From: a bacterium
GTDB lineage: Bacteria; UBA8248
DNA: 64,000 bases
Direction: 5' to 3'
Assembly (NCBI GenBank): GCA_965213625.1
Contig: CBDBZU010000004.1
Span: forward strand, 32,001-96,000
A program made the position numbers and the translations under genes. Under the pieces are notes generated by a model. The model did no database searches. It was given only the letters and a program-made list of their open reading frames with translations, and was not told the origin of the DNA. Positions 1-38,010 of this stretch are shown one piece after another; within the stretch, counting starts at the first letter, position 1; each line of letters begins with the position of its first letter.

Positions 1-1926
<1,926 letters not shown>

Positions 1927-5628: not shown

Positions 5629-5629
5629 G

Positions 5630-7201: not shown

Positions 7202-7311
7202 GGCCCCTTCATTCCAAATGAATTTTACGTCGTCGTCCGCCATAAAGTAGAGGCCGGGCAACGCTCATTAAATACTAAACGACAAGTAAATCCTCATTTT
7301 CTATCTTACAA

Positions 7312-10717: not shown

Positions 10718-10738
10718 GGTTCACTCCTTTGGTAGTCC

Positions 10739-11110: not shown

Positions 11111-11144
11111 GCCTTTCTCCTTTCCAGAGAGTTAACGGATGCGT

Positions 11145-11662: not shown

Positions 11663-11698
11663 AAAAGGGGTCGACGCGCGTGATGGCGCCGACCCCTT
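11663..11698 (-). terminator. Rho-independent terminator after ssb (copy 1)
   Basis: Stem AAGGGGTCG...CGACCCCTT followed by a U-run on the minus strand. Confidence 0.65.
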
Positions 11699-11706
11699 GT
11701 GAGCAC

Positions 11707-17500: not shown

Positions 17501-19327
17501 GGGTATTTCACGGTGACGATGAGCGAGCCCGCGGACCGGACAATCACCATCCTCTACGCGACCCGCCAATCGACACCGGTCTCGGCCAAGGCCGGCCGGG
17601 ACTACTTCGAATGGAAGCGGGCCTGGCGGGCACGGATCTCGATATTGCCGGGCAAGACGACGGCGCGGGTTCCCGTCTACATCTACAACGACAGCCATGA
17701 CGAGGATCCGGAGACGTTCGAGGTGGTCCTGTTCGACGCCGATGAAGGTGTGTCGATTTCGGACGGTGTTGCGGTGGGCACGATCACCAACGACGACCCG
17801 ATGCCGGCGGCGTGGCTGGCGCGTTTCGGTCGCACGGCGGCGGAGCAGGCGCTGGACGGCATAGCCGGGCGCATCGCGGCCTCGCGCAGCGCCGGGGTGC
17901 AGGGCACGATCGCCGGGCAGCCGCTCGCCTTCGGGCCTGTCGGCGCGTCGCCTGCGGCGCACGCGATTACGGCCGGGGGCGGCCGCCACATCGCCCTCGG
18001 GGAGGGAGAGGTCTTCGCCAGCGAGTCGTACCGCTCCGGCGCAGGTGCGCCGGCGGACTCGCGCCTTCTGACGACGCGGGACCTGCTATTAGGCTCGAAC
18101 TTCACGCAGACAGGGGAGAAGGACGGCACGGGCGGCAGCTTCGCCTTCTGGGGCCGGGCGGCGCAGTCGAGCTTCGACGGCCGGGAGGGCAGCTTCTCGC
18201 TCGACGGCGAGGCGACCACGGCCATGCTGGGCGCGGACTATGCGCGCGGCGACTGGCTGGTCGGCATGGCTCTGATGCATAGCAGCGGAGAAGGCGGCTA
18301 TGCAGACAACGGACCGGTTTCCGGGGCAGGCAGCGGTACGGATTCCGTGCGCTGTCCCCAACCTCTGGATGCCGGGACGCGGAGGGTCCATTGCAGCGGC
18401 GCCGTGCGGGAAGGCGACGGCAGTGTGGAGGCGTCGCTGGCGGCGGCGGTTCCCTATGCCTCGCTCCGGGTCTCGGAACGCCTGAAGCTCTGGGGCGCGC
18501 TCGGCTACGGTTCGGGCGAGGTGACGCTCGAGACGGCCATGGGCGACCGCTATGACGCGGACACGACGTGGTCCATGGCGGCGGCGGGACTCAGGGGCGG
18601 CCTTTTGAAGCCCGGGAGCTTCAGCCTCGCCCTTCTCGCCGACGCGCTGTGGACGCGCACGGATTCGGATGAGACCGGCGAGCTTTCGGCCTCGCGCTCC
18701 GAGGTGAACCGGCTTCGGCTGGGAATCGAGGGGAGCCGTGAATTCACGCTCGATGGCGGCGTCGTTGCGCCTCGGGTCGAATTCGGGGTGCGCCACGACG
18801 GGGGCGGCGCGGAGACGGGCTTCGGCGTCGAGGTGGGCGCCGGGGTATCGCTCACCGCCGGGCGTCTCGGCCTCGTGCTCGACGTATCGGGCCGCACGCT
18901 GCTCGCGCACGAGGACGAGGACCTGAAGGACCGGGGGATATCGGCCTCGCTTACCTATGACCCGGACCCCGGGAGCAAACGGGGCGCTTCGTTCGCGCTC
19001 CGGCGCGACCTGGGCGGTTCGGCCGCGGACGGGCTCGACGCGCTGTTCGCCTCCGATCCGCTGGCGAAGCGCTCCGGCGGGCGGAGCGACGGCTGGCGCG
19101 CGGAGGCGGCCTGGGGGCTGCCCGCCTTCGGCGGACGCTTCACGGGTTCTCCCTTCCTCGCCTGGGGCTTCTCGGCCGGGGCGCGGGACTACGACGTGGG
19201 CTGGCGCCTCGAACCCGAGGCTGCAGGCGCCCCCGACCTCTCGCTCGCCGTAAAGGCCACGCGGCGAGAGGCCGCGGACGATACGACCGACCACGGCGTC
19301 GGGGTCGACCTCACCGCGCGCTGGTAG
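14534..19327 (+). CDS. Large autotransporter-like adhesin with Calx-beta/Ig-like repeats
   Basis: 1597 aa ORF with a signal-peptide-like segment (SLAAVLLGLLLSGFAAPAAAQ), Calx-beta-type repeats (ATVDDAADEADGSVSVTL; NDSHDEDPETFEVVL) and a C-terminal beta-barrel ending GVDLTARW. True start may be the in-frame TTG at 14702. Confidence 0.85.
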   Translation: MGFPATYWSEVTMKTLSAFVRGWKKLCESGYRFCAARGGDIRKIRSGGLTNRLRGSLHNRAEPSRAEPSRAEPSRAEPSRAALATSPWWRRLGRSAARSEPLGSSGGCPATRRPASSSGRPVASTAFAGSLRRSLAAVLLGLLLSGFAAPAAAQTTMPQIMLSQTNFKLDEPQDNNCPDSKVGTEKTFHYNQNTEKLERVERHYGRVLTSVQYKVMLDRKPGPGKYVSVEIWDPTDLDRPDVRDGYHDDGSIAFTGHFSQNAQIHGISWRGGQQGRITIAKSFLTFTDKNWNRAQTVTVNILCAQHDVNTPLPIWHFAFRHNDRVINPGATHQYRLSDSVHAAGDNRKGDNSPNNTSLKIAEVRVADSTEPAAVTSNVDGKLVLDAYGSGFTTGGKKMIDLEFNWNHPDNALHNDYDDAAEQFAAFRVKLRTVEPAGHPVQEKVVPVNLISPGDDKTTTSWYAALEAKGHVGWVHGRPQPADGKYEWSVVPLDRRWNDVEAERVTRCVLLTSRAGPNGGRASRIDETATPTCPPAPQNAPAQAAPAQAPTEAVANLQVTAVDAASAGVTWDAVEHATSYEVSWDANGSQTAVSGAESVTGASATIRHDAQEAMTLTVTVTPEYVDGNGVTQRLDALAATATLAVGPGGDALSASAQAEAACVSGALLADARKAASETWRTSGHVERWSRVLAAFGESNAYSNNPMTVAEARAQADRGLKRWTPVLEALECLAAAPEEQPEQAEAQPATPATPALSLSAGSAVDEGGNAAFTVTADPAPQSDLTIAFTVAQSGDYLDAPGAGSRTVVLTAGAAGVALSVATVDDAADEADGSVSVTLGTGAGYTVAGGKGSAAVTVRDDDEPVVSIVAGSGVTEGAPASFTVNAEPAPAAPLDITLTVGQSGAFAASGEAGSRTVTVPVSGSVDVEVATLDDAADEPDGSITATLDAGTGYTVAAAPDNAATVAVSDNDAASSGPTISIADASFKENQRTGYFTVTMSEPADRTITILYATRQSTPVSAKAGRDYFEWKRAWRARISILPGKTTARVPVYIYNDSHDEDPETFEVVLFDADEGVSISDGVAVGTITNDDPMPAAWLARFGRTAAEQALDGIAGRIAASRSAGVQGTIAGQPLAFGPVGASPAAHAITAGGGRHIALGEGEVFASESYRSGAGAPADSRLLTTRDLLLGSNFTQTGEKDGTGGSFAFWGRAAQSSFDGREGSFSLDGEATTAMLGADYARGDWLVGMALMHSSGEGGYADNGPVSGAGSGTDSVRCPQPLDAGTRRVHCSGAVREGDGSVEASLAAAVPYASLRVSERLKLWGALGYGSGEVTLETAMGDRYDADTTWSMAAAGLRGGLLKPGSFSLALLADALWTRTDSDETGELSASRSEVNRLRLGIEGSREFTLDGGVVAPRVEFGVRHDGGGAETGFGVEVGAGVSLTAGRLGLVLDVSGRTLLAHEDEDLKDRGISASLTYDPDPGSKRGASFALRRDLGGSAADGLDALFASDPLAKRSGGRSDGWRAEAAWGLPAFGGRFTGSPFLAWGFSAGARDYDVGWRLEPEAAGAPDLSLAVKATRREAADDTTDHGVGVDLTARW
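14711..14775 (+). repeat. (CGAGC)13 microsatellite in the 5' coding region of the adhesin
   Basis: 13 perfect pentamer units encoding RAEPS repeats. Confidence 0.95.
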
Positions 19328-20329: not shown

Positions 20330-20677
20330 GTCGCAAATCTATCCATCGCCACCGACGAGGGCTACGTGGACCGACAATCCGGTGACCGCATCGACAAGAC
20401 GGAGTGGCACCGGGTCGTCACCTTTCAGCCCGGCCTGGTGGATATGTTCGAGAAGCACGCGAAGAAGGGCCGCCTGGTCTACGTGGCGGGCAAGCTCCAG
20501 ACCCGCCGATGGAAGAAGGACGAGGAAGACTCCGATCGCTTCTCCACCGAGATCCTCGTAGCACCTGGCGGGCGGGTGCAGTTCCTGGACAAGGTGAACG
20601 GGAATGGCAACGGCAACCGCGCGGATCCCGAGACGGTAGCGGCAGTCGATGGAGCCGCCGACGAGATTCCTTTCTAA
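20330..20677 (+). pseudogene. ssb: 5'-truncated ssb (copy 2)
   Basis: Starts at VANLSIATDEGYV, lacking the first ~28 codons; ends DEIPF. Confidence 0.85.
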
Positions 20678-20683
20678 CCTCAC

Positions 20684-20722
20684 AACGGGCCGGCGCCACG
20701 CGCGCGTCGGCCCGTTTTTTTT
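20684..20722 (+). terminator. Rho-independent terminator after ssb (copy 2)
   Basis: AACGGGCCGGCGC / GCGTCGGCCCGTT stem followed by a T8 run. Confidence 0.8.
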
Positions 20723-21042
20723 GTTCGTTATCCAGAGGAAGTCCACCACCGAAGCGCCCGCGCCTTTCCCTCCCTGCCGGCCCTTCTCCTCTACCGGGAA
20801 CACCCCATAAACCTCCGGTTCCGTGAACGGTAAACCATGTTCCCGGAAGATCGGCAGGAACACTGCAATCATACCATATTCAGGATAGTGGCTCGGTCCA
20901 CCCCCCGCTGCGGGAATTCCGGGCCGAATAACGGCCCGGAATGACCCTCTCCGCAGCATGAAGGGATGTTTCCCGATGAGCTTCGCCTTCATCGTGAAAC
21001 CTCAAAGGCTCTTGTGTCCCGGTGGCGATACTGATGTCTCTC

Positions 21043-21236
21043 TCTTAGCGTCCTCATTTTAGCACGCACGGCGCGGGGTCAAGGGTGCTTTTGCAAATAA
21101 CGCAAAAGCATCTTTTTTTCAGAAAAAATCGGTGATGCATGGATTTTTTCCGCTGCGCGCCCTCCGGGTGAAAAAAAGACTGAAAACCGCCCCTGACGCC
21201 CACGCCTGACACGTGCTGAAAATGAGGCGCTAAGAA
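21043..21236 (+). promoter_or_regulatory. Long fold-back structure, candidate Frpo-type ssDNA promoter (copy 2)
   Basis: 5' arm TCTTAGCGTCCTCATTTTAGCACG...GGGGTCAAGGG pairs with 3' arm CCCCTGACG...CGTGCTGAAAATGAGGCGCTAAGA. Inner stems include TGCTTTTGC/GCAAAAGCA and GAAAAAATC/GATTTTTTC. Confidence 0.55.
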
Positions 21237-21270
21237 GCATATCCGTTAACTCTCTGGAAAGGAGAAAGGC

Positions 21271-21642
21271 ATGGAAACCACCGTGGTGAACCTGAACGAC
21301 TACGTTGCAGAAAACGGCAGCGGCTTGCTGGTGAGGATCGACTGCATGACGAAGTGGGGAAACCCCTTCCGGGTCGGCGCCGATGGCGACCGCGACGACG
21401 TCATCAAGAAATACCGCCAATGGCTGTGGAGAAAAATCCGGCAGGAGGAGGTGAACCTCTACGAACTCGCCGACCTGCAAGGCTGCGAACTCGGCTGCCA
21501 CTGCCATCCCCTCCCGTGTCACGGCGACGTCCTCGCCCGCGCCGCCGAGTGGGCAGCAAGGTATCTCGACGAGATGCCCAGGGAAGTGGGGCGCAACGAG
21601 CGTGGCTACGCGCTGCCCGAATTCAACCATCCCCTCGCTTGA
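21271..21642 (+). CDS. DUF4326 domain protein (copy 2)
   Basis: Near-identical to 10739-11110. Confidence 0.85.
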   Translation: METTVVNLNDYVAENGSGLLVRIDCMTKWGNPFRVGADGDRDDVIKKYRQWLWRKIRQEEVNLYELADLQGCELGCHCHPLPCHGDVLARAAEWAARYLDEMPREVGRNERGYALPEFNHPLA

Positions 21643-21663
21643 GGACAACCAAAGGAGTGAACG

Positions 21664-22614
21664 ATGACCGCTATACACGACCACAAGGAGATGAACATGA
21701 ACGAGCACACGGAACACGAAGCGCAAAACGAATCTTTCACCGCCATGGTCTGCGAGCAGGCAGCGCTTTTCGGCGCCACGCCAGGGCCGGATGAGTTCGA
21801 CAACCGCCCCGTGTGGGACGAGGGCGAGGCCACCGCCGCCGTCATCAAGGCCTTCGGCGCACTTGCAGAAGCTGCGCCCGACGGAACACAACTCGCCGAC
21901 GAGCGGGCGAGTCTCCTGTGGGGCTTCGTCAACACCTTGGACGCCCAGACACAGCGCCTCGACCGCGCCGCCGACAGGCTCATCCCCGGCATCCGTGAAC
22001 TCCAGCGCGAGCAGGACGGCTCCGAGATCCGCTCGCGTGAACTCGAACTCAAGACCGACAGGGCCAACAACCTCACGGAACGCCGCGACGCCTTCGAGGG
22101 ACTGCGCGACACGGCCGCCGAGGCCTATCGCATCGAGACCGGCGAGGTATGGCGGCCCAGGCGAGGATCGCACGTCAGCCAGACCGGCAAGCTCACCTCC
22201 GCCGTCATCGAGGCGCGCGACTTCCAGCGCGCCAGAAAGGACCGTGAGAACACCGCCCATCTCCCCCAGGGAACCCTCGTCGCCGTCGCGGGTGGCAAGG
22301 AGGCGAACGACGCCGGCAAAATCATCGCGCATCTCGACCGCCTCAAGGCCAAGTACGCCGACGTCGTTCTCGTCCACGGCGGCGGACCCGGTGCGGAGAA
22401 GATAGCGGCGGGATGGGCCGAGAGAAACGGCGTCCACCAGGTCGTCTGCAAGCCGGATTGGGATGCCCACGGACGGGCCGCTCCCTTCCGCAGGAACGAC
22501 GAGCTGCTCGCACTCCTGCCCAAGGGCGTGATCGCGTTCCCGGGCAGCGGCATCACCGACAACCTCGTCGACAAGGCAAAAACCCTCGGCATCCCCGTCC
22601 AGAAAGTAGCGTGA
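21664..22614 (+). CDS. DUF2493 / YspA-like SLOG-domain protein (copy 2)
   Basis: Near-identical to 9767-10717. Confidence 0.85.
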   Translation: MTAIHDHKEMNMNEHTEHEAQNESFTAMVCEQAALFGATPGPDEFDNRPVWDEGEATAAVIKAFGALAEAAPDGTQLADERASLLWGFVNTLDAQTQRLDRAADRLIPGIRELQREQDGSEIRSRELELKTDRANNLTERRDAFEGLRDTAAEAYRIETGEVWRPRRGSHVSQTGKLTSAVIEARDFQRARKDRENTAHLPQGTLVAVAGGKEANDAGKIIAHLDRLKAKYADVVLVHGGGPGAEKIAAGWAERNGVHQVVCKPDWDAHGRAAPFRRNDELLALLPKGVIAFPGSGITDNLVDKAKTLGIPVQKVA

Positions 22615-23236
22615 CTTGAACGCTCAACGGGTCGCGTCGCAGCACATCAACTGTGGCGCGGCCCGTCGCTTCTCTCCTCCCTCACTCCACCGTACCTCTA
22701 CTGCTTGCTCCGCTCGTCTCCAACCGCTCAGTCGCCGCGGCGGCTCCCGCTCGCCATTCTCGCCGGCAAAAATTCCCTCGACTCGCGTTCCAAAAGATCC
22801 CTGCGCTAGCCGCCCTTCGGCGTTTCGTTCAGTACACCCGACGCATCGCCGATGCGGGTGTTACATAGGCTGCGAACGACCGCGATTCGTTGCGCCTCTC
22901 TTTTATCATTCATCTTCCCGAGCATCCCCGTCGCGCCGAGAAAAGTAATACCAATCTGGTGGCATACATATCCTTTTGAAATCACTTCACTTAAGACATA
23001 GCGTATGCTGTTTGTAATACGTTTGGTATCAGGGTGTTTCCTGTAGATACCAAATTGGTAGCACCCAGGCCTGCGCTGCGTTATGATGGATACCGATTTG
23101 GTATTGCGAATACTGTCACCAATTCGAGACCTTCCCGGTTCGCGACGAGTGTGTTCGGTGAATTGAAACGAGAATTTCCCGATCGTTTTGGTACCGGAAT
23201 CGATTAAAATCATCGCGAAGGGAGCGGCAAAACGAA

Positions 23237-23517
23237 TGGCGCAGACGACACAGAAGAACATCCGTTTCACGTCCGAACAGTGGAAACGCGTCGAAAAAGA
23301 AGCCGAAAAGCTTGATATTTCGCCGAACCGGCTCGTGGTAGAGCTTACAATTGAGGGCCTGGAGCGCCGGGAATGGCCCCGCACCGAGGCCGAAATCCAC
23401 CTGTTGCGTTCCGCCATGTTCACCGCCCAGTCCATCATCCGCGACATGGAGAAGGCTGGACGCGAGCAGGAGATCAAGCAAATCAGCAGGAATATCTCCG
23501 AAGTCGCGCCGGAATAG
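23237..23517 (+). CDS. Ribbon-helix-helix-like DNA-binding protein (copy 2)
   Basis: MAQTTQKNIRFTSEQWKRVEKEAEKLDISPNRL; paralog of 8818-9156. Confidence 0.65.
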
Positions 23518-23526
23518 CCGGGCAAA

Positions 23527-24348
23527 TCAGCGAAAGACCAGCAGTATCAGGGGGATTCGGGGAGTGAGAATACATGAACCGACCTCCTCGATCCGGGAGT
23601 TCAGCCGAGTAAGGCCACCGATTTTGGCGAGATGATCGCAGCCCACATGCTCACCCCACCGCCTATACCCGATTCGTCGCCCGTCCGTCAGCCACTCTAA
23701 CTTGCGGCTGATGCAGGCGCCCAGCGCGGCGTCCTTCGCGGCGAGAGCGAAACCGCCGTGCTCGGTCTCGGGGTCCAGGGCCGTAACCGCGAATTCGCCG
23801 CCGGAGGCGTGGGCCGTGTGACGGTTGCCGATCTCGCCTTTCGCCACCGCATCTATCCGGCCGGCACGAAGGGCCGCCATGAGTTCCGCCCCGCCGAGTT
23901 TCGAATCGAGATAGACCACCCGGGGCATGCCCATCGAGGGTGGCTCGACGGACAGGCGCCCGGCGAGGTTCGGCGACGAGCCGGCGGCATCGATGACGTA
24001 GTCCGCGCTCCCGTCGGCCACCGCCTCGCCGCGCGGTGTACGGACGCGGGCACCGGCAGCAAGGATCCCGGAGGAACTTGCGAGACCTGTCAACGCCAGC
24101 AATCGCGCCTCGCTCGACGTTCCCGCAAGGACGCCGACGCGGACGCTGCTCCCCAGGTCCTCATGCCTGTGGATGCGCCCGGCGTCTGCGGCACGCACCA
24201 GAAGCGACTGGCGGAACGCGATGTGCCCCGACGTGAAGACGACGGTTCTCTTCCCCGCGGTATCGAAGGTTCGGGACTCGATAATCGTGATGCCCCGCCC
24301 ACCATGTCGAACTACAATCCGGCCGCGCGAAGCCAGATGTTCTTCCAA
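23527..24348 (-). pseudogene. Fragment of a periplasmic substrate-binding protein (family 3-like)
   Basis: VRVGVLAGTSSEARL, ALRAGRIDAVA, GFALAAKDAAL. No signal peptide, and the ends look truncated. Confidence 0.55.
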
Positions 24349-24915
24349 GACGCGATGCCGCGGCGGGAAAAAGAGAGGCCCGCGCCCTTCATCGCTTCGA
24401 GGGCGCTCATGATGCCAAATATTTCAAATCAATTTTTCTTGACAAATTTCGTTGATATTGCCAAGGTATTTAATGCAACATGATTTGCGGGTTGACTCGA
24501 TAATGGGATCGATTTTGAAATACAAGACCTCATTCTCGAGTGAATACGAAGGAGTCCACCCCAAAACTCATAAGTTAAGCGGCATTCGGCCCGATCCGGC
24601 GGGGCTGACACCAATAAAAAAATGAAAAGTATGAATCTATGCAAGGAACCCGATAATGGCTCAAGAAATGAAAGAAGCATTTGCAAACATAAACTCTTAA
24701 TTTGACCATTCAGGATCAAGATTCGATGAACTCAATGATGAAGTTAATCTCAAAAATCTTTGTTAACTTTGCTGAATTATTCCCATTCTTTAAGGAGACC
24801 GAAGATGCGCGCCGCCTTGCAACATTCCCCTTGGTTTTTCGGGCCTTCTTCAATAGCAGAAAAGTTTCATATCAGGGCTTGACAAGCCGGACGAGAGCGT
24901 TCTTCACCATGTCCT

Positions 24916-24945
24916 CCGAACCGAACCGAACCGAACCGAACCGAA
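24916..24945 (+). repeat. (CCGAA)6 microsatellite upstream of the second adhesin remnant
   Basis: Six perfect pentamers, 31 nt after a TTGACA at 24879-24884. Confidence 0.9.
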
Positions 24946-24953
24946 CGTAGGCC

Positions 24954-25943
24954 ATGAGCGTTACCACATGGCGGCGCTGCCTTTGCCTTTCAGCCTCACC
25001 GCCTGAGTTTTCCCGCCGCTCCGGTCCGCGCGGCGCGGCTTCCGGACTCCGCAAAAGAATCGGCGCCCCGGGACAAACGCCCCGGAAGCGGGCCACCTTT
25101 TCCCCGCACCGTCTCTTCCTGTCCTTGCTGTTGCCGGTCCTGCTGGCGGCGGGTTTTACCGACGAGACCACCGCGCAGGTCACGGTCTCCTTCGAGGCGA
25201 TGGATACGTGGATGACCGAAGGCGACGCGACCGACACGGCGCAGGTCAGGGTCAAGCTCGGCCAGCGGCTGCTGACGGACGATGTGGCGCACTTCTCCAT
25301 CGGCATAGGCACTAACTCGACCACCGTCCGCCACACCGATCACGTGACCTCGGACTACTCCTACGCCATCACCGGAACCAGCGTTACGGTGTCCGGTACG
25401 GGAAGTGACCCGACTCTGACCTTCACCGGCCTTGCCACGAACGTGGTGCAGGAGGCGCCCATCATGCTCACCCCAGTGACGAACCTAGAAGAAGGCAACG
25501 CCTACGAAGGGACGCTGAACGTCGTTTTCGGGAGCGAGGGCAAACAACACCAACGTCGCCTGCGGCCTGCCCGTGGGCACGCTGGCCAGCAGACCATGAC
25601 GCACAGCGACCCGACAAGCGTGTTGAGTATCTGGACAACGCCAACTCGGTGGCCAAGGGTGAGGTGTTCGAGGTGGAAACTGATGTTCTCGTGGCCTCGG
25701 TTCACGAATACAACTGTTACCTTGGTGAACACGGACCAGACCGCGTCGGAACAAGGGGACTACACGGGCGGCCCCTACACGGTGACTATCCCGGCGGGGT
25801 GGCCCCGGTACCGCTTCTCTATTGCCACCGAGTATGATGACGAGATCGAGGGTCCGGAAACATTCCTGCTCTCTATCCAGGGCGGCGACCTGCCCTCCAC
25901 AACCGCCGCCGCGCTGTACTCAGCGCCCTTTGAGGAGCGCTGA
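24954..25943 (+). pseudogene. Truncated Calx-beta adhesin
   Basis: Signal-peptide-like LSLLLPVLLAAGF and Calx-beta motif YDDEIEGPETFLLSI. The middle reads as degenerate and there is no barrel; it ends at the RBS of the next gene. Confidence 0.6.
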
Positions 25944-25944
25944 C

Positions 25945-28900
25945 TTGGTGCCGAAGTATGATGCCGCCATTATCGGCGCGGGACCGGTGGGAAGCGTGTG
26001 CGCAATTATCCTTGCGCGCAAGGGCGTTAAGGTGGCCCTGCTCGAAGCGAATCCGAAAGCGTCTAAACGCCTTGCAGGCGAATGGTTGCATCCGCCGGCA
26101 GTGAAATTGTTGCGTGACATCGGGATTGATGTTGATACGCTTTTCGGCAGCAAGTCGGGCGTCGGTTTCGTGGTGCTGCCCGACGACGACTCCGACCCGA
26201 TCCTGCTTCCTTATCCAGACGGTTCACGGGGTCTGGTATGCGACCACGCGCTGCTCGTTTCAAGCCTCCGCGAGGTCATAGAGAACGAGGCCAATGTCGA
26301 TTTCATTTCCGACGCGCGGGTCAATGTCGTTGAAAACGAACGGATCACCTTCTCGAAAAACGGCTCGGAATGCGCCATAAATGTCGACCGAATTATCGGC
26401 GCCGACGGCCGCGCTTCGATCGTGCGCAGATCCTTGGGATATTCCATGAACCCGATGCTCTGTTCGCGGATGCTCGGGGTGACGTTACACGACGCCGACC
26501 TGCTGTTTGAAGGTTACGGACATCTGGTGCTGGGCGGGCCGGGTCCAATTTTCATTTACGGACTTGCGAACGGCTCCGTCCGGGTCAACCTAGATGTCCC
26601 ATTGGACTGCTGGAATTCCAAGGATCGGATAAGTTTCTTGTCTGAATCCTATGGCAGGCTGCTTCCGGGATATCTCGGGCAGGCCTTCGTCGAAGCGCTG
26701 CACGTCAGGCGATTCTATGCCGCCGCCAACCAGTTGAGACCGCGTGTCACGTACGGGAACCCGCGGCGGGTGCTTATCGGCGATGCGGCCGGACACTATC
26801 ATCCCATGACGGCAGTCGGCATGACTCTCGGCTTCGGCGATGCGCTGGCGCTCTCCGAAAGCGAGGACTTCCAGCAATTCACCGCAGAGCGGTTCCAGGC
26901 GACCCGTGTTCCCGAGTTCCTTGCCATGGGGCTTTATGAGGTGTTGGCCGATTACCGCACCGAATCGGTTATGCTCAGAAAGGCCGTTTACCAGGGCTGG
27001 CGAGCGAATTCGGGGTATCGGGACCGGACCATGCGGATACTTGCCTGCCAAGAGTTGTCCATGTCAATGACGGTTTTCTCCTTTTGCGAAACTATCGCGC
27101 GGGCAATGAGCCGGGAGATAATCTTCTCCATCCGCAGGTTTTCATGGCGTCGGATATTGGTGAACTTTCGCGCGTTGGCTGCTCGCCTTTGGTGGTTGCT
27201 GCTCGGCATCCGCCAGTTGAGGGAGGCGACCAGGGAAGGAAGGGAGGAAAGCGCGAAAGCGCGAGAGCACCTACGACGGGCATTCCCCTATACCATCCCT
27301 TCGAAAACCGAATCGGAGCGGTCCGCCCGCGCCGGAGAGGTCGATTCGCCCGATGCCGGTCCGGCGCTGGGCAGCGCCGCCCAATGCCTCGTGCAAATGC
27401 AGAGAGAGGACGGCCACTGGGAAGGCGAGATGGTCTGGTGTCCCATGCTCACGGCGCAATACGTACTGCTCCACCACATCATCGGCCAGCCGCTCGATCC
27501 GGGAAAGCGGCGCCGGGTGCTGCGCTCGTTTGAGAGGACCCGTCTCCAGGACGGTTCATGGGGCCTGCACGAGCATTCGTCGCCCCATCTGTTCGTCACC
27601 GCCCTCGTTTATGTCGCGGCGCGGCTGCTCGGTGAAGAGCCGGATGACCCCCTGATCGCGCCGGCCCGGCGGTTCATTCAGGCCGAGGGGATTCTCGGCA
27701 TTCCGAGCTGGGGAAAATTCTGGCTGGCGCTCCTTAGTCTTTATGATTGGAACGGTGTGAACGCTGTTCTGCCGGAATTGTGGAGCCTACCGCGGAAGAT
27801 ACCGCTGCATCCCTCCAATTGGTACTGCCATACACGGCTCATCTATATGGCGATGGCGTCAATTTATGTCCGCCGGTTCCAGGCGCCCGTCACACCAGTT
27901 ATCGCCGCGTTGCGGGAAGAACTTTATCCGCAAGGTTTTGCCATGGCCGATTTTCTCGCCACCAGGAACCGGCTTCGGGACGCCGATCTTTTTGCAAGGC
28001 CGTCCGTCTGGCTCAGGCTCGGATATAGATTTGCACGGCTGGTCGAGCGGTTCCACAGCAAACACCTGCGCACACAGTGCATGGATGCAATTCTCGGGCA
28101 GATCAGATGGGAACTGCAGACCACCAGCCATACTAGCATCTCTCCGGTCAGCGGCATTCTCAACATTCTGGCGCTGTGGCTGCACGATCCGGACGATACC
28201 GATTGCCGACGGGCGCTATCGAAAATGGATTCCTGGATATGGGAAGACGAAGACGACGGCTTGCGGGTCACCGGAGCAAGAAGCGCTTCGTGGGATACCG
28301 GGTTCGCGCTGCAAGCTCTGGCTACCATGCCTGAGACGGACCGTGTTCGGGATGCGCTCCGGCGCGGCGCCGATTTTCTGCTCGGCGAACAGATCAAGAC
28401 CAGCTTTGAGCGGTTTCGTGAAGCCTACCGCGCTGACCCCAAAGGCGGCTGGTGCTTCGCCGGCGGGTGGCATGGCTGGCCGGTGAGTGACTGCACGGCG
28501 GAGGCGGTGCTCGGACTCGTCGCCGCCCACGGAGACGACACGGACTCGTCCGTGCTCAGCGAAGCGATTGGCTTTATGTTGCGAAGCCAGAACCCCGACG
28601 GCGGCTTCGGCAGTTATGAGGCCAGGCGCTCGGCAATTGATCTGGAGCGCTTGAATCCCGCAGAGATGTTCGGCGAATCGATGACCGAGCATTCTTTTGT
28701 CGAATGTACCGCGTCTTGTATCGCGGCGCTGGCTGTCTGCCGGGATCGATTTCCCGAAATTGGCGACAGGTCAGGGGTTGCCGATTCCATCGCCCGGGGC
28801 GCCTTGTGGTTGCGACGGAACCAGATGGCTGACGGCAGTTGGCGCGGCGTATGGGGGGTCCAGTACATCTACGGCACCCTTTTCGGCATCAGGGGCCTTG

Positions 28901-29388
28901 TTTCGGACCGGGCCGGTCCAAGCGATCCGGCGCTGCGCGCGTCTTGCCGCTGGCTGCTGGAGCGCCAGCAGCAAGACGGGGGATGGGGTGAACACCACAG
29001 CGGCTGCCTAAGCGGTCGCTACGTCCCGCATCAGGAAAGTCAGGTCATACAGACCGCGTGGGCGCTGATAGCGCTCCTCGAGGCGGACGAAACTGACTGG
29101 GCCGCGATTTCCCGGGGCGCTGGCTTCCTGCTTAATACGCAGGAAGCAGACGGGACTTGGCCCAAGCAGGACATGCCCGGCGTTTTTTTTCGGACGGCGC
29201 TCCTGGATTACGGGCTCTACCGCCAGTATTTCCCCCTGCACGCGCTTGGTCTCTACGAGCAGCGTCGCCGGAAGCGACGCAAGAGCATGATATTACCGGC
29301 GAGAAGTCAACGCGTCATGGCTGAAAGAGTGGCGGCTGTGGAAATGAAGCCGGACGGCGGAACCGGAACGGCAAAGAATATCTCGTAG
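25945..29388 (+). CDS. Fused squalene epoxidase-like FAD monooxygenase + oxidosqualene cyclase
   Basis: N-half: IIGAGPVG FAD motif, RLAGEWLHP, IGADG, GDAAGHYHPMTAVGMT. C-half: QW repeats (QREDGHW, LQDGSWG, QNPDGGF, QMADGSW, QQQDGGWG, QEADGTW), HPSNWYCHTR and the catalytic VSDCTAE. Start set at TTG 25945 (or GTG 25948) after GAGGAG; the ORF track starts at 25822. Confidence 0.9.
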   Translation: MVPKYDAAIIGAGPVGSVCAIILARKGVKVALLEANPKASKRLAGEWLHPPAVKLLRDIGIDVDTLFGSKSGVGFVVLPDDDSDPILLPYPDGSRGLVCDHALLVSSLREVIENEANVDFISDARVNVVENERITFSKNGSECAINVDRIIGADGRASIVRRSLGYSMNPMLCSRMLGVTLHDADLLFEGYGHLVLGGPGPIFIYGLANGSVRVNLDVPLDCWNSKDRISFLSESYGRLLPGYLGQAFVEALHVRRFYAAANQLRPRVTYGNPRRVLIGDAAGHYHPMTAVGMTLGFGDALALSESEDFQQFTAERFQATRVPEFLAMGLYEVLADYRTESVMLRKAVYQGWRANSGYRDRTMRILACQELSMSMTVFSFCETIARAMSREIIFSIRRFSWRRILVNFRALAARLWWLLLGIRQLREATREGREESAKAREHLRRAFPYTIPSKTESERSARAGEVDSPDAGPALGSAAQCLVQMQREDGHWEGEMVWCPMLTAQYVLLHHIIGQPLDPGKRRRVLRSFERTRLQDGSWGLHEHSSPHLFVTALVYVAARLLGEEPDDPLIAPARRFIQAEGILGIPSWGKFWLALLSLYDWNGVNAVLPELWSLPRKIPLHPSNWYCHTRLIYMAMASIYVRRFQAPVTPVIAALREELYPQGFAMADFLATRNRLRDADLFARPSVWLRLGYRFARLVERFHSKHLRTQCMDAILGQIRWELQTTSHTSISPVSGILNILALWLHDPDDTDCRRALSKMDSWIWEDEDDGLRVTGARSASWDTGFALQALATMPETDRVRDALRRGADFLLGEQIKTSFERFREAYRADPKGGWCFAGGWHGWPVSDCTAEAVLGLVAAHGDDTDSSVLSEAIGFMLRSQNPDGGFGSYEARRSAIDLERLNPAEMFGESMTEHSFVECTASCIAALAVCRDRFPEIGDRSGVADSIARGALWLRRNQMADGSWRGVWGVQYIYGTLFGIRGLVSDRAGPSDPALRASCRWLLERQQQDGGWGEHHSGCLSGRYVPHQESQVIQTAWALIALLEADETDWAAISRGAGFLLNTQEADGTWPKQDMPGVFFRTALLDYGLYRQYFPLHALGLYEQRRRKRRKSMILPARSQRVMAERVAAVEMKPDGGTGTAKNIS

Positions 29389-29456
29389 AGGGATGGAAAA
29401 AAGGGGACCGGAAGCCGCAGGAATCGGCATCACGAGAAAGAATCAAATCACGAGAA

Positions 29457-31487
29457 ATGGAGTGTAACATGATAACGAAGCAATCGTTGAATATCCCGCA
29501 AGAATTCATCCTGACGATTCTCAACGAGCAGAACGGTTATTTCCACCAAGTGGAGGGCTGGACGTTGAACTGCGCCACCATCGGCGCAGTTCTGGCCGAT
29601 CTCTGCTTGAAATCACGCGTTGATACAGATGAAGAATCACTTTTTCTGCTGGACTCAACCAAAACAGGCGACCCGGAACTGGATTTATGCCTGGAAGAGA
29701 TCGCATCCCATCCCAATCTGGAAGAACCGCGATACTGGATTGAGCGGCTTGCAGTTCATTCGGAAGACATCATCGATGCTACGCTGAAGCACTTGATCAA
29801 GTCCGAAATTCTGACACGCCATGATGGTGAGTTTTATACAACGAACCACTGCGCCTGGCATGCGAAATTGGAACGATATCCCCAAAGCGAGAGCGTCGGA
29901 AAGTACATCAAATCGAGAATCGAGGAGGTGATTTTCACGGATATCATTCCGGACCCGAGGGATTCCCTGATAATCGGTCTTTTGGATGCGTGCGATATCA
30001 TTAAATTTATTTTCGAGCTGGATGAGGAAGAGAAAAAGCGAATTGACCTGGTTTGTAAAACGGAACTGCTCAACCGGGTCATTTCCAGTGCCGTCAAGCA
30101 AGTCGCCATTACGCCTGCATTGCAACACTCACCCCTCACAAAATCAATTCCGAAGATTCCCCTAAAGAGCTTGCTTGCAAATCGGCATTTGTGGGACGGC
30201 AACCTGCCGGCGCTGTTCGGGAATCTGGCCGACCGATATGGTCCGGTCTTTCAAATCTGTGCGCCGTTTCAAAAGCCGCGAACATTTTTAGCTGGACCTG
30301 ATATCAATCATTGGGTGCGTCGAAATTCCCGAAGGTTTTTAACTTCCGGCAATTTTTTTCGCAAGATGGAGATGGTTTGCGGCGCAAACAATTTACTGCC
30401 GTCGATGGACGGAGCCGATCATTTTCGATTGCGCAAGCTGATGGGGAAAATTTACTCGAAAGCCAGTTTCTATGAGAGGCTGGATGATATGTTCCGACTG
30501 AGCCGCCAATTCATGATAAGTCAAGAGTGGCAGGCGGGATCGAGACTGGAAGTACAGCGAGATACCCGGTTGATGACCAATTTTCAATTGTCTCAGGTTC
30601 TTATTAGTACGGATTCGCAAGATGTATTTGAAGATCTGGTCAAATGGAATGAAAGAGCAATCCTTTGCTACGTTGCGGATTTTCTGCCGAAATTCCTGAC
30701 GCGCACTCCCGGCATGAAGTATCGCTTTCAGCTTTACGAGAAACTCCTGCGGCGCATCGAGCAGAACCATATACCCATTCACCGCGCAGGTGTTGTCGAG
30801 GAGCTAGCGGACGCACTGATTGCTTTGCACAACAGCGACCCGCAGTTTATCCCGGAGCAAAACCTGCTGTTCATGCTGGGGGTAACGCCTGTGTTTCAAA
30901 GTATTTATCTAGGGGACATGTTGGGATTCGTGCTTTATGAAATGGCCAGGCAGCCGGAAATTACGGCGAGAATTCGTGAAGAGGCAAACGCGCTTTTCGA
31001 TGGCGGGGACCCGGATAAAGACGAGTTTTCGCCGGACAAGTATGACGTTACCAGACGTTTTCTCATGGAATGCTTACGAATGTATCCGATTATCTGCATA
31101 CATCTTCGCGATGTCTCAAGTTCTTGCGTCGTGGCAAATTATTCACTGCCGCTCAGGGAACGGTTGTACATTGTTCAAACCGCGGCGCACTACATGAGTG
31201 ATTGCTTCGCAGACCCCTACGAATTCGATATCGACCGTTATCTGCCGCCGCGCAATGAGCATCAAGGTCCTGGATACGCTCCGAACGGCTTGGATACCCA
31301 CTCGTGCGCAGGATGGGCATGGATGCATTTGCAGTTAACAGTTACCGTGTTGGTTATAGCGCATCATTTCGAGTTCGCGCTGCCGCCTAAAGACTATAAG
31401 CTGAAAATCAACCCGTTCCCGGCATTGTCGGTTACGAAGAAACTTCGGCTGCGCATCGCAAGCCAGTTGCGCGAAATTTCGGCTTGA
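29457..31487 (+). CDS. GPP34 (GOLPH3-like) domain fused to cytochrome P450
   Basis: N-terminal ~210 aa GPP34-like (IPQEFILTIL...GAVLADLCL...TGDPELD). P450 motifs ECLRMYP, FDIDRY and a heme loop APNGLDTHSCAG. Confidence 0.8.
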   Translation: MECNMITKQSLNIPQEFILTILNEQNGYFHQVEGWTLNCATIGAVLADLCLKSRVDTDEESLFLLDSTKTGDPELDLCLEEIASHPNLEEPRYWIERLAVHSEDIIDATLKHLIKSEILTRHDGEFYTTNHCAWHAKLERYPQSESVGKYIKSRIEEVIFTDIIPDPRDSLIIGLLDACDIIKFIFELDEEEKKRIDLVCKTELLNRVISSAVKQVAITPALQHSPLTKSIPKIPLKSLLANRHLWDGNLPALFGNLADRYGPVFQICAPFQKPRTFLAGPDINHWVRRNSRRFLTSGNFFRKMEMVCGANNLLPSMDGADHFRLRKLMGKIYSKASFYERLDDMFRLSRQFMISQEWQAGSRLEVQRDTRLMTNFQLSQVLISTDSQDVFEDLVKWNERAILCYVADFLPKFLTRTPGMKYRFQLYEKLLRRIEQNHIPIHRAGVVEELADALIALHNSDPQFIPEQNLLFMLGVTPVFQSIYLGDMLGFVLYEMARQPEITARIREEANALFDGGDPDKDEFSPDKYDVTRRFLMECLRMYPIICIHLRDVSSSCVVANYSLPLRERLYIVQTAAHYMSDCFADPYEFDIDRYLPPRNEHQGPGYAPNGLDTHSCAGWAWMHLQLTVTVLVIAHHFEFALPPKDYKLKINPFPALSVTKKLRLRIASQLREISA

Positions 31488-31667
31488 AGGTGCTCCTGCA
31501 GGCCTGACCGGCAATACGGACGCTATCGAGAATGAAGGCATGCCGCGAACGTGGACGCGGAGGGGCGGAAGTTTGCTCGCGAGACACCCGGCGGAACCGC
31601 CCCGGCCTGATCGGCGCTTAGACGGCCTCATTCCTTCGACCTACGCCATCACGAAACGTCCCAGAAG

Positions 31668-34007
31668 CTAGTCGCCGAGCGCTTGCCCGTGTTTCGTCCT
31701 GTCGAGCGTCAGCAGAAGCGGCGGTAGTAAAAAGAGGTCCGCAACGAGCGCAATGATGACCGTCATTCCGACCAGCAACCCGAGCGTCTGATTGGTCACT
31801 AGCCCCGATGCGCCAAAGACGAAAAACGCCACCGCAAAAATCAAGGTTGTGCTTAGCAGCGGTTTTCCAACGAGTTCGAAAGTCGGCGCGATAGCTTCGG
31901 AAGGTGATTTGCCCTCTGCGCGTGATTTCAGGTATTTGGACAGGAGATGGATGGTATCGTCCACAACGATGGCAAACGCTATCGCGGTAACGATTGACGC
32001 CGCAATATTCACGTTTCCCGCGGCGTAACCCCAAGCCCCCAGGGACATGATTGCCGGAACGAAATTGGGTATTAAGCTCAGAAGCCCCAAACGAAGGCTT
32101 TTGAATGCAAAAATCAACAGCAGTGAGACGATCGAGATCGCGATGAAGGTTCCGAGTAACATGTTCACGATGTTTCTCATCACCGAGTAAGCGCCGACAA
32201 TGGCGACGCCGGTCGCTCCGGTTCGCATTTGCGGCGCATTTTTTCCCAGCCAGGCAGAAGCGCGATTGTCCAGCTCGATTTGCTCTTTGACCGACATTCC
32301 CCCGATCACGACGGTCATCCGGGTCGCCGAACGCTCAAAGTTGATGAGATTGTTTATGTCGCGGCCGACCGGTAGAGAGAACTCGTATAAAAGCAGGTAT
32401 TGCGCCGCAAGGTCGGAGTTTGCCGGCAGTGCATAGGTGCCTTTTGCGTCATTGCGCAGATTCTGATTAATCCGCTTCATGATATCAGCAATCGAGGTGA
32501 CGTGAGAAACTTCAGGCTGTTTGCGAAGCCAATTGGCGAACGAATCCACCCGATGCAGGTACTCAATGTCGGTGATTCCCCCTGCACGCCCGGAATTCAG
32601 TGAATACTCAAAGGAATCCAGCCCGGAAAAGTTCTCGTTTATGAAATCCCCCGATCGGCGCAACTCGTAGCTTTCGTTAAGCAGCTTGGCATTGTTGTTG
32701 TCATTCAGTTTAATTCTCGAGACGCCATATGCGCTCACCAGAACGAGTATGACGAAAGTCCAAAGCAACAAGGTGCTTTTGGAAACGACGAAATCTCCCA
32801 AACGCTTGAAAGTTTTCGTTCCGTTTCTCTTTTCGGCGGGCGCCCGCATGGGCATCATCGCCAACAATGCGGGCAAAAGCGTGACCGCGTAAGCGAATGC
32901 GCACATGGCGCCGAACGCAACGATATTTCCCATCACTCGAAACGGGGGCATTTCCGAGAAATTCAGGCTCAGAAAACCGATCATGGTGGTGAGCGAAGTG
33001 AGGAATATCGGATGGGCATTGATTTGCAGGGAATGAACAACAGCGGCTTTACGTTCCATTCCACGAAGCATTCCATCGGTCATTCCTTCGATCAGATGGA
33101 CGGAGTGTGCGATGGCAATCGCCATCAGAACGAATACCGCGGCGCCGCTTTCCGCATAGAATTTCAATCCGAACCAGCCGGTTAAACCGAAACTCGATGC
33201 CATCACCGCAATTATCATCGCAATAATTCCACAAACGCTCCAAACCGAACGCAGCAATAGAATGGCCACCAGAACCATCATCGCAAACGCGATGGGCGCC
33301 AAAAAGGACATATCTTCATTCAGCGCCTCGCGAACCGCCCGATTCAACAACAGTTCACCATAGATGTGATATTCGATATCGGGGTTGGACGCGCGCTGTT
33401 TGTTGACGAGACCGTAGAGACCGTCGACCACTTCGATTTTGCGCTGTTTCCTTTTCTCATCGGGAATAGCCAGGCTCACGATCAGCCCGGCTACACGACC
33501 GTCGCGAGAGACGAAACGGCCGGCCGTTTCCTGTGTGGTGAGCGCAATCTCTCGAACACGGGCGAGTTTGACCTCGTCCAGCGAAGCCGCATCGTCGACC
33601 AGCTGCTCGACAATCAGTGTGTCCTCGATTCCCTCGGTGTGTAGGTAATTGGTTATCGAATCGACACGGACAGAATAAGGCGTTTGCCACAACACCTCCG
33701 TCAGTTGCTCAATCGCAACGAGTGCTTTGCGCGTGAAAACGGTGTCGTTCGGCGGGGCGACAATGACGAGCACGCTGTCCGACACTGCGTAGGTCTTTTC
33801 GAAATCGTCGAGTTTGATCAAATGCGGATCATCTTCATCGAAGTGATTTCGGATGCCTACATTGACGGTAATCAGGTGCTGCACTCCCGCGGCGAGAACC
33901 GCGGTCACCAGGAATGTGACGGCTATCGTCCAGAAGTATTGACCCACTACCAGATCGAAAAAACCGGACTTCGACTTGGATGTCATGTTATGTGCGCTTT
34001 CCCGCAT
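31668..34007 (-). CDS. MMPL / RND-superfamily lipid transporter
   Basis: 779 aa with two repeats of TM + periplasmic domain + 5 TM; PIFLTSLTTMIGFLSL and AIVVDDTIH motifs. Confidence 0.88.
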   Translation of the reverse strand: MRESAHNMTSKSKSGFFDLVVGQYFWTIAVTFLVTAVLAAGVQHLITVNVGIRNHFDEDDPHLIKLDDFEKTYAVSDSVLVIVAPPNDTVFTRKALVAIEQLTEVLWQTPYSVRVDSITNYLHTEGIEDTLIVEQLVDDAASLDEVKLARVREIALTTQETAGRFVSRDGRVAGLIVSLAIPDEKRKQRKIEVVDGLYGLVNKQRASNPDIEYHIYGELLLNRAVREALNEDMSFLAPIAFAMMVLVAILLLRSVWSVCGIIAMIIAVMASSFGLTGWFGLKFYAESGAAVFVLMAIAIAHSVHLIEGMTDGMLRGMERKAAVVHSLQINAHPIFLTSLTTMIGFLSLNFSEMPPFRVMGNIVAFGAMCAFAYAVTLLPALLAMMPMRAPAEKRNGTKTFKRLGDFVVSKSTLLLWTFVILVLVSAYGVSRIKLNDNNNAKLLNESYELRRSGDFINENFSGLDSFEYSLNSGRAGGITDIEYLHRVDSFANWLRKQPEVSHVTSIADIMKRINQNLRNDAKGTYALPANSDLAAQYLLLYEFSLPVGRDINNLINFERSATRMTVVIGGMSVKEQIELDNRASAWLGKNAPQMRTGATGVAIVGAYSVMRNIVNMLLGTFIAISIVSLLLIFAFKSLRLGLLSLIPNFVPAIMSLGAWGYAAGNVNIAASIVTAIAFAIVVDDTIHLLSKYLKSRAEGKSPSEAIAPTFELVGKPLLSTTLIFAVAFFVFGASGLVTNQTLGLLVGMTVIIALVADLFLLPPLLLTLDRTKHGQALGD

Positions 34008-34689
34008 GATTTGATTCCTTCTCGCGGTGCCGACTCCTGCAGCATCCGGTAATCTTTTTTCCCATACCTCTATAATATCTGCCTTCTATTGTATGGCTTC
34101 ATGTCCATGGCCGCCACTTTTTTTATGACAGGTTGGCTTCTCGCGGGAGCAGACCATCAGACAACTCCGTCGAGACGACGGATCAGCGGTTCTGTGACGG
34201 AGATCCAGTCGTCCCGCATCGGGCGCGCCGACGCGCTGCTCCTCACGAGCACCCATGCCCGCGATTTGCTTAAAGGCGGGGGCGCGACGCTCGTCGGGGA
34301 GACGGTCGAGACGTTCGATTGCGCGGGCGCGCGCTGCGTCGCTCGGAACGGGACGGCGGTCTCAGCCTCTCCTGGGCGCACAACGTAATACGCCCCGGCC
34401 ATGAATGCGCTCGCCTTGACGGCCCAACAGGCACCATTGAGAAAGATCCGGTGTCGGTGTATATTTGTCGAATATTCGTTCAGCTTTGAGAAAAAGCGTC
34501 GTCTCATGAGAAAATGCGAACCAGCCGCTTTAGGCGCATATTCTCCTTGTGATTTGCTGCCTTGGGGAAAGCGGCGAGTCGCCCCTTCCGGCATCCTCTA
34601 GTGGAAACCTCCTGAAGAAAGAATGCAGCATCTCCCTCTTGCCGGGAGGGGCGGCGCTCGAACACATCATTTTCATTCGGGAGGGAAAG

Positions 34690-37365: not shown

Positions 37366-38010
37366 ATGACCACCGGGACGAGGGGAGCTAGAAACGCCCA
37401 AAGGAAGTTCGGTGACCTCCCAGTACCTTTGGGTCTGTCTCTGCTCGGCAACCTTCACCAGATTCGTTTTGCGAGGATGCACTGCATACTCGAGAGATGG
37501 GCGGATCGATACGGGCCGATCTATTGCATATCGCTGGGCAGGCGAAATTACGCGGTGGTCTCGGAACCGGACGCCATAGCCCATATACTGGGGAAGCGGC
37601 CCCACGGCTTCCGGCGCGAGAAGTCGAGCACCTGAGACGGTGCTGGGAACGCGCGGCCGATCATGGAGAGGCGATAGACCCCTACCGTGACCTCATGCGC
37701 TTCACCGCCCGTGTCACTATGCAATTCGTCTTCAGCGTCGACCTCGGCGCGCCCGAAAGTCCCGGCGCATCCATCCGTCACCATCTCGCCGCCATATTCC
37801 CGGTGTTGCACCGCCGTCTGAATCTGCCCTTACCCTTTTGGAGGTGCTTCCGGCTGCCTTCGGATCGAGCGCTCGAACGCGCTCTTGCCGGACTGAAAGC
37901 CGAGGTTCGCGACATGATCCGCACTGCTAAGGAACGAATGGAAGAAAACCCGCGGCGCAGCGTTACGCCTGGGAATTTCATCGAAGCCTCAATCGCCGCC
38001 AGAGGATGTG
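37366..38010 (+). pseudogene. Cytochrome P450 remnant (internally deleted, 3'-truncated)
   Basis: LPVPLGLSLLGNLHQI...WADRYGPIY...VVSEPDAIAHIL, then in another frame DLMRFTARVT...FRLPSDRALERAL. No ExxR or heme Cys. Confidence 0.75.

Follow-up and report, generated by a model that had tools for sequence, protein, structure and literature searches.

We analyzed a 64,000-nucleotide (nt) stretch of bacterial DNA (the window; GenBank assembly GCA_965213625.1, contig CBDBZU010000004.1, positions 32,001 to 96,000, forward strand) in which one gene encodes a squalene epoxidase (SE) and an oxidosqualene cyclase (OSC) as a single polypeptide. Squalene monooxygenase and oxidosqualene cyclase are monotopic membrane enzymes that catalyze consecutive steps. 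The fusion gene lies on the plus strand within an open frame at 25822 to 29388. We place its coding sequence at 25945 to 29388 (TTG start) or 25948 to 29388 (GTG start), because the preceding open reading frame ends in a TGA stop at 25941 to 25943, just ahead of the start, because a Shine-Dalgarno-like GAGGAG read from the sequence at 25932 to 25937 (plus strand) lies 7 nt before the TTG and 10 nt before the GTG, and because homologues begin aligning at residue 2 to 5 of the protein. The coding sequence comprises 1,147 codons plus the stop and has no internal stop codon, as the initial annotation had stated, and the motifs quoted there were all found: GAGPVG at residues 11 to 16, RLAGEWLHP at residues 42 to 50, GDAAGHYHPMTAVGMT at residues 279 to 294, and DCTAE at residues 849 to 853.

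Continuity across the linker between the two enzymes was judged from contigs of public sequencing runs. No insertions or deletions were listed over 27150 to 27400. Zero-difference unitigs over 27157 to 27445 and 27435 to 28125 came from runs X1 and X3, both of one study and possibly of the source sample. A second study supplied a single 2,530-nt contig (run X5) that spans 25800 to 27446 with 51 substitutions and 0 gaps. There were no RNA runs among the 22 public runs listed for the fusion sequence. A promoter and terminator scan of positions 24000 to 34600 gave counts near chance (6 promoter-like sites versus 5.1 expected and 10 terminator-like sites versus 13.2 expected).

The flavin monooxygenase core of the SE domain occupies residues 3 to 372 (25951 to 27060), as delimited by Pfam matches, alignment with human squalene epoxidase (SQLE), invariant columns, and the fold match. 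The Pfam family FAD_binding_3 matched at residues 5 to 304, and SE (PF08491) matched at residues 151 to 368 with 71.7 bits against a cutoff of 20.1 (E = 6.6e-20). Group A flavin monooxygenases bind flavin adenine dinucleotide (FAD) through GxGxxG, DG, and GD motifs. The protein carries GAGPVG (25975 to 25992), GADG at residues 152 to 155, and GDAAG at residues 279 to 283, the last within a GDAAG...GMT segment at 26779 to 26826. Across 30 fused proteins with identities down to 43%, residues G11, G13, P14, G16, R42, G45 to P50, G155, G279, D280, A281, G283, H286, and P287 are invariant, and A12, V15, G152, A153, and D154 are nearly so (at least 90%); A282 is not listed as conserved. Human SQLE (6C6N) was the top solved sequence match of the N-terminal half (E = 7e-26), with the next family at 2.6e-8. 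The fold match to human SQLE (6C6R) paired model residues 3 to 432 with residues 122 to 572 (Z = 37.9, root mean square deviation 2.4 Å, 421 residues) at 22% identity in the structural alignment. The squalene-monooxygenase-type N-terminal half proposed initially is thus supported in silico by sequence, fold, and the PF08491 score.

Two long helices follow the core (residues 373 to 432; 27061 to 27240), supported by the AlphaFold2 model (helices at 373 to 398 and 401 to 431), the SQLE fold alignment, and hydropathy. Matches to p-hydroxybenzoate hydroxylases and to ordinary flavin hydroxylases extend from model residue 3 to 372 and no farther, whereas the SQLE match continues, indicating that helices 373 to 431 are the epoxidase-specific C-terminal part. 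Outside the Rossmann fold, hydropathy peaks at residues 404 to 422 (maximum, 1.55), and no clear transmembrane helix was found by hydropathy along the fusion protein. In the model, residues 373 to 432 are the probable monotopic membrane-binding part. The genome contains no other SE-like gene; the second match is a 37-residue FAD-motif stretch (E = 3.9e-4). Therefore, without the N-terminal half, a DCTAE-type oxidosqualene cyclase would have no substrate.

The OSC domain spans residues 469 to 1112 (27349 to 29280), delimited by Pfam, NCBIfam TIGR01787, and human OSC (1W6K) by both sequence and fold. SQHop_cyclase_N matched at residues 477 to 770 (177.5 bits, E = 4.5e-52) and SQHop_cyclase_C at residues 780 to 1105 (186.5 bits, E = 8.4e-55), so that all four Pfam domains sought with hidden Markov models in the two halves were matched. 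The TIGR01787 model (squalene/oxidosqualene cyclases) scored 509 bits, above its cutoff of 322.7, and the hopene cyclase model TIGR01507 scored 265, below its cutoff of 431. Human OSC matched by sequence at E = 2.5e-134, and by fold with model residues 469 to 1112 on residues 71 to 727 (Z = 38.4, root mean square deviation 2.4 Å, 640 residues). DCTAE marks oxidosqualene cyclases, and squalene-hopene cyclases carry DxDD instead. The DCTAE motif (28489 to 28503) aligns D849, C850, T851, A852, and E853 with human D455 to E459, and all five are invariant in the 30 fused proteins. H232, C533, and Y503 are catalytic residues of human OSC; their equivalents are H629 and C921, both invariant in the same set, and Y891, which is nearly so. 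A full triterpene cyclase carrying DCTAE, as first proposed, is therefore present. Searching the genome with the fusion as the query gave no second cyclase, squalene-hopene cyclase included.

Three further positions bear on the product. Those equivalent to human 381, 449, and 453 are A778, H843, and V847, all invariant in the 30 fused proteins. In the sections of Wei et al. (2016; PMC4919349) that treat these residues, the lanosterol rule is T381, C or Q449, and V453, versus Y381, H449, and I453 for cycloartenol; in the bacteria tested, V453 corresponded in full to lanosterol and I453 to cycloartenol, and only position 453 was predictive. V847 fits the lanosterol rule, but A778 and H843 do not.

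The two domains are joined by a linker of about 36 residues (433 to 468; 27241 to 27348), consisting of a short helix (437 to 446) and a subsequent stretch that is rich in charge, poorly conserved, and modeled with low confidence. The predicted local distance difference test (pLDDT) score is below 50 at residues 453 to 466, and mean identity over residues 431 to 476 is 0.42, versus 0.72 in the cyclase. The protein ends in a basic, unconserved tail (residues 1113 to 1147; 29281 to 29385) with an identity of 0.13, a gap fraction of 0.42, and a pLDDT below 50 at residues 1116 to 1147. The AlphaFold2 model of the whole chain was built from 30 fused homologues and had a mean pLDDT of 83.3 and a predicted template modeling score (pTM) of 0.60.

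The fusion is widely distributed. A word-indexed search listed at least 120 relatives at 65 to 96% identity, and all 120 are proteins of 1,044 to 1,184 residues with the SE and cyclase Pfam families. For the loci, one genome per species was scanned, giving 259 tblastn-confirmed stretches, of which the best 80 were kept; with the window, these make a set of 81. All 80 match the fusion as one continuous stretch (62 to 96% identity). No split forms occurred among the best 80 of the 259 loci; no search was aimed at shorter proteins. By the NCBI rank of their record titles, 60 of the 80 belong to Pseudomonadota (30 alpha, 30 gamma), 7 to Nitrospirota, 3 to Binatota, 2 to Chloroflexota, and 1 each to Rhodothermota, Acidobacteriota, and Thermodesulfobacteriota, with 5 unranked, for at least 7 phyla overall. 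The record titles are largely those of sponge-symbiont metagenome-assembled genomes (MAGs), among which the host lineage has relatives. Pieces of the fusion gene also occur in a sponge-metagenome run (X8), where 17 of 219 records are at least 99% alike.

An unfiltered SE-domain search of 1.84 billion representative proteins gave 222 matches at an E value of 1e-30 or lower. Among the best 150 of these were further SE-OSC fusions only 35 to 44% identical in the SE part, and the fusion architecture therefore reaches beyond the sponge clade. A second architecture that looks widespread, found in 33 of 138 rows of the SE-domain tree (e.g., P0130, P0135, P0138, P0140, P0154, and P0164), combines an SE-like flavoprotein, some 300 to 400 residues that faintly resemble SQHop_cyclase_C, and a squalene/phytoene synthase domain (SQS_PSY) in 1,080 to 1,200 residues. 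When the origins of the fusion were counted on an SE-domain FastTree, there were 11 changes, at least 8 of them forced by well-supported branches. We do not rely on this count because many rows with SE alone may be gene fragments from short contigs.

The initial annotation had described the two enzymes as normally separate genes, implying that the fusion was novel. This was not borne out, since fused forms are published (PMC7074536 and PMC10070321) and the search for other full-length fusions recovered them in 120 of 120 listed relatives and 80 of 80 kept loci. The fused SE-OSC is already known and common in sponge-dwelling bacteria, and the gene described here is one more example. With at least 120 relatives, 80 loci, and the omega of 0.17 published for the fusion-length LSS gene of Kelly et al., the fusion is a selected, recurrent architecture.

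The fusion and the genome that carries it have different affinities. The fusion protein is 77% identical to copies in the Paracoccaceae MAGs L005 and L007 and nests inside the Paracoccaceae copies with a support of 100 (FastTree). The window's RpoB is 57 to 58% identical to that of the same two MAGs, 96% identical to that of genomes L003 and L004, and at most 57% identical to that of any named genome found. Within the genus, 4 of 22 other genomes carry the fusion, two at 92 to 96% identity and two (G010 and G017) at 66%; no fusion match was found in the other 18 congeners, whose completeness is 79 to 100%. One stop lies inside the fusion match in each of G010 and G021. Horizontal acquisition of the fusion is strongly indicated by these sequence comparisons. 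The presence of two alleles (92 to 96% and 66%) in 4 of 22 congeners further suggests at least two separate acquisitions within one genus.

A conserved block of about 10 kb surrounds the gene (24390 to 34363), with 96.8% identity to L003 over 10,019 nt by blastn. Against L004, identity is 92.6 to 92.9% over 25893 to 34164. Outside the block, similarity drops and gene order is rearranged relative to the closest relatives. The first reading of this DNA had placed the gene in a mobile island. Horizontal acquisition is supported by the tree, the RpoB contrast, and the patchy occurrence in congeners, and mobile and defense genes lie nearby. However, the window contains no tRNA genes, neither an integrase nor repeats flanking the module were found, and there is no compositional signal of an island: the GC content of the fusion is 0.604, versus 0.591 for the genome, and that of the 10-kb block is 0.556, the 14th percentile of 10-kb windows. 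An accessory, horizontally acquired module is therefore supported, but a mobile island with defined ends is not.

Several other features of the window were recorded. A type I restriction-modification system lies on the minus strand at 1 to 7261 in a low-GC stretch (0.48 to 0.53), with HsdR at 1 to 1926 (cut by the window edge), HsdS with an N-terminal nucleotidyltransferase domain at 3593 to 5218, HsdM at 5630 to 7261, and a 425-residue open reading frame without an assigned identity. An IS110-family transposase gene is located at 39868 to 40980. A large inverted repeat (8833 to 12048 and 20330 to 23520) has core arms of 1,777 nt at 9742 to 11518 and 20863 to 22639 that are 93% complementary. 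It encloses about 8.3 kb encoding a 1,597-residue Calx-beta-domain protein (14534 to 19327), with 2.4 kb between the end of its right arm and the fusion downstream.

The genes next to the fusion differ from those at most related loci. On the same strand, 68 nt downstream, lies a gene for a 676-residue protein in which a GPP34 (GOLPH3-like) domain is fused to a divergent P450 by Pfam (29457 to 31487). It is followed by a convergent gene on the minus strand (31668 to 34007) whose 779-residue product is a transporter of the MMPL/RND type bearing a sterol-sensing domain (by Pfam, MMPL, Sterol-sensing, and Patched; by NCBIfam, HAE3 and, weakly, HpnN-like). The usual order elsewhere is an SdmB-like dehydrogenase, a Rieske oxygenase (SdmA), ERG24, CYP51, and the fusion, often then a sterol methyltransferase (SMT). 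Counting tblastn matches of at least 40% identity and 60% coverage within 8 kb of the fusion, we found CYP51 at 68 of the 81 loci, ERG24 at 66, the Rieske gene at 66, the SdmB-like gene at 65, SMT at 55, GPP34-P450 at 25, and the MMPL/sterol-sensing transporter at 15. None of the SdmB-like, Rieske, ERG24, and CYP51 genes occurs within 8 kb on either side of the window fusion. Both CYP51 and ERG24 are absent from 12 loci, 2 of which are short; all of the other 10, the window included, have GPP34-P450, and 8 of the 10 have the MMPL transporter. One ERG24-family gene, 31 to 33% identical, lies about 290 kb from the fusion. The best solved matches of the P450 part of GPP34-P450, which are weak, are to CYP51 (E = 1e-13). 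GPP34-P450 has been published as GPP34_L and proposed to be a phagocytosis or host-manipulation effector (PMC11706023); the words sterol and squalene do not occur in that paper.

A second sterol-related locus in the genome (G000:C4:1344317-1370640) holds three SMTs, three MMPLs, an amine-oxidase flavoprotein, a LolA-like protein, an uncharacterized protein of about 430 residues, and a GPP34-P450 paralogue 38 to 40% identical to that of the window. Downstream of the fusion and its two neighbors, an N-terminal P450 fragment at 37420 to 37626 (G000:C4:69420-69626) matches profile positions 2 to 72 in an open frame of 100 residues. Elsewhere (G000:C4 ~3631491-3633650; L085:589-2748, minus strand), a squalene-making triple fusion, Nudix-HpnC-HpnD, is encoded as a 719-residue protein that scores above the NCBIfam cutoffs for HpnC (462.8 bits versus 250.45) and HpnD (447.1 bits versus 278.6). 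A CrtO/phytoene-desaturase-like flavoprotein (L002:1495-3087) is encoded about 5 kb from it.

We consider it rather unlikely that the fusion and GPP34-P450, joined at 8 of the 10 loci by the sterol-sensing transporter, act as one compact and horizontally mobile module for making, modifying, and exporting a protosterol, in this lineage and at 9 further loci, without CYP51, clustered ERG24, or SdmA/B. In such a module, GPP34-P450 might carry out the P450 step, or a 4,4,14-trimethyl sterol, possibly methylated on its side chain by the three SMTs, might be the end product passed to the outer membrane or the sponge host. If so, the GPP34-P450 family would belong to bacterial sterol metabolism.

The gene probably encodes a natural bifunctional enzyme of the type of the published fusion MsbE, converting squalene via oxidosqualene to a lanosterol-type protosterol, and was horizontally acquired. 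The N-terminal flavoprotein (residues 3 to 432) would act as a squalene monooxygenase that binds FAD, sits on the cytoplasmic membrane via its two C-terminal helices, and epoxidizes squalene to 2,3-oxidosqualene. The flexible linker of about 36 residues would tether it to the monotopic OSC (residues 469 to 1112), in which the Asp of DCTAE would protonate the epoxide and cyclization would yield a protosterol, most likely lanosterol. Squalene could be supplied by the Nudix-HpnC-HpnD protein. As a likely benefit, the fusion would have two consecutive membrane-surface enzymes expressed 1:1 and kept side by side, giving the lipophilic intermediate a short path; what is proposed is proximity at the membrane and no protein tunnel. 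When fused, the pair could also pass as one unit in horizontal transfer, and the likely origin is a Paracoccaceae-like donor, from which the GPP34-P450 and RND/sterol-sensing transporter genes probably came along with it. The gene had at first been called a bifunctional synthase leading from squalene to a cyclic triterpenol. In silico, the single polypeptide, both domain identities, the catalytic motifs, the folds, the distribution, and the signature of transfer hold; we infer what each half catalyzes, which product is made, how the protein sits on the membrane, and why the two halves are joined.

Several observations weigh against this assignment. With the queries used here, no canonical CYP51 (best matches, 20 to 28% identity) and no Rieske SdmA turned up in the genome, and its one SdmB-like match is weak. 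The single-chain model has a pTM of 0.60 and a disordered linker, so that a fixed interdomain interface or tunnel is unsupported by the model. No biochemical characterization of any fused SE-OSC was found in the literature searched. The enzyme function is a prediction from sequence and fold. The strict oxidosqualene cyclase model TIGR03463 (osq_cycl) scored 727 bits, under its cutoff of 851. Finally, only one of the three classical product positions is lanosterol-like, and histidine at position 449 is the cycloartenol-synthase residue.

The last two points bear on the product, and the alternative that survives best concerns it. The fusion may be active with a product other than lanosterol, which could be cycloartenol or parkeol, several products together, or a triterpenol that is not a steroid (e.g., an arborane-type alcohol). 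We regard this as a possibility worth keeping, though well short of an even chance. The mixed triad of alanine at 381, histidine at 449, and valine at 453 would suit it, as would the TIGR03463 score, and bacterial OSC homologues can reportedly make arborane triterpenols, to go by the title of a 2017 paper by Banta et al. In contrast, the valine at position 453 by itself tracked lanosterol fully in the bacteria of Wei et al., as given in the sections noted above (PMC4919349), and from the same valine the MsbE section of Mohanty et al. (PMC7074536) called that protein a lanosterol cyclase. In addition, CYP51 and ERG24, which act on lanosterol-type substrates, adjoin the fusion at 68 and 66 of the 81 loci, respectively. 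Because the V453 equivalent is present and V453 correlated fully with lanosterol in the bacteria tested, lanosterol is the most likely product on the residues seen here, a best guess and not a certainty.

A second alternative is that the N-terminal flavoprotein, instead of being a squalene 2,3-epoxidase, is a related monooxygenase with a different role, for example a second epoxidation to dioxidosqualene or oxidation of the cyclized product, with oxidosqualene coming from elsewhere. Identity to human SQLE of 22% in the structural alignment leaves room for such a change, and the SE-like domain is versatile, as its pairing with SQS_PSY in 33 of 138 tree rows illustrates. However, there is no second SE-like gene in the genome to supply the cyclase, the PF08491 score exceeds its cutoff, and the SQLE-specific C-terminal helices are present. 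The SE core is also as conserved in the fused family as the cyclase (mean identity, 0.63 versus 0.72). We therefore judge this alternative improbable. Least credible, to the point of being negligible, is that the single frame is owed to an error of assembly or sequencing, or that the gene decayed recently, with the organism in truth having two genes or no working one. The assembly is MAG-like (4 contigs, 5.16% contamination) and the linker check was based on contigs, but all 80 independent genome loci and all 120 listed proteins share the same unbroken architecture, zero-difference unitigs and a gapless contig from a second study traverse the linker, and the fused family shows no variation at the catalytic residues.

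As a bifunctional SE-OSC, the fusion would be the entry enzyme of the sponge-symbiont sterol pathway, and it appears to be the unit that moves between phyla. Two published studies (PMC10070321 and PMC9531527) connect the synthesis of sterols by bacterial symbionts of sponges with the questions of who makes the sterols of the sponge and of how sterane "sponge biomarkers" are to be read. The present copy contributes a complete and clean case in a nearly closed genome, evidence that one genus acquired the fusion twice independently, and a reduced context in which the fusion stands apart from CYP51, ERG24, and SdmAB and is tied to GPP34-P450 and an RND transporter. The reduced gene context and the repeated acquisition are mildly new; the fusion itself is not. 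The fusion could also serve as a ready-made part for bacterial triterpenoid production.

Hoshino and Gaucher (2021) do not mention the fusion in the main-text passages searched. A 2025 preprint on cyclase diversity (PMC12324236) applies the word fused to other enzymes only. Nothing further on the fusion was found in the main texts searched on Nitrospira, sarasinoside, or bifunctional symbiont enzymes.

The closest known system is MsbE (Mohanty et al., 2020, Mar Drugs, PMC7074536; GenBank MT026193). According to the section of that paper describing it, MsbE likewise joins an epoxidase at the N terminus to a cyclase at the C terminus within one polypeptide, and it has residues for flavin binding as well as the valine from which a lanosterol cyclase was called; MsbE is itself an uncharacterized prediction. 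The reported order msbA-E (oxidoreductase, Rieske, sterol reductase, demethylase, and fusion) is the canonical order around most relatives of the window gene. The equivalence was drawn from architecture and the synteny of these relatives. The window gene shares the fused frame and groups with sponge-symbiont fusions. In contrast to msbE, it lacks an msbA-E cluster, having GPP34-P450 and the MMPL transporter in place of msbA-D as neighbors.

The same family appears under other names in two larger surveys. In the sections consulted of Kelly et al. (2022, Microbiome, PMC9531527), ERG24-CYP51-LSS clusters were reported in 115 of 537 Ircinia sponge MAGs from 11 classes and 10 phyla, and horizontal transfer of the clusters was inferred. 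The LSS alignment there is 3,765 nt, long enough for a fusion, with an omega of 0.17; LSS is not termed a fusion in section 14 of the paper. Brown et al. (2023, Nat Commun, PMC10070321) mention in their methods passage that SMO/OSC homologs occurring as fusions had been trimmed. As far as these sections go, the LSS/ERG7 genes of Kelly et al. and the SMO/OSC homologs of Brown et al. cover the same family as the window fusion, with a phylum spread like that of our 80 loci. The three-gene core of Kelly et al. is not intact in the window genome, where CYP51 was not found and the ERG24-like gene, 31 to 33% identical, is about 290 kb away. Compared with the human enzymes, the fusion has no counterpart of the regulatory N terminus of SQLE (before residue 122) or of the first ~70 residues of OSC. 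In folds and catalytic motifs, its two halves are like human SQLE (6C6N, 6C6P, and 6C6R) and OSC (1W6K), here covalently joined.

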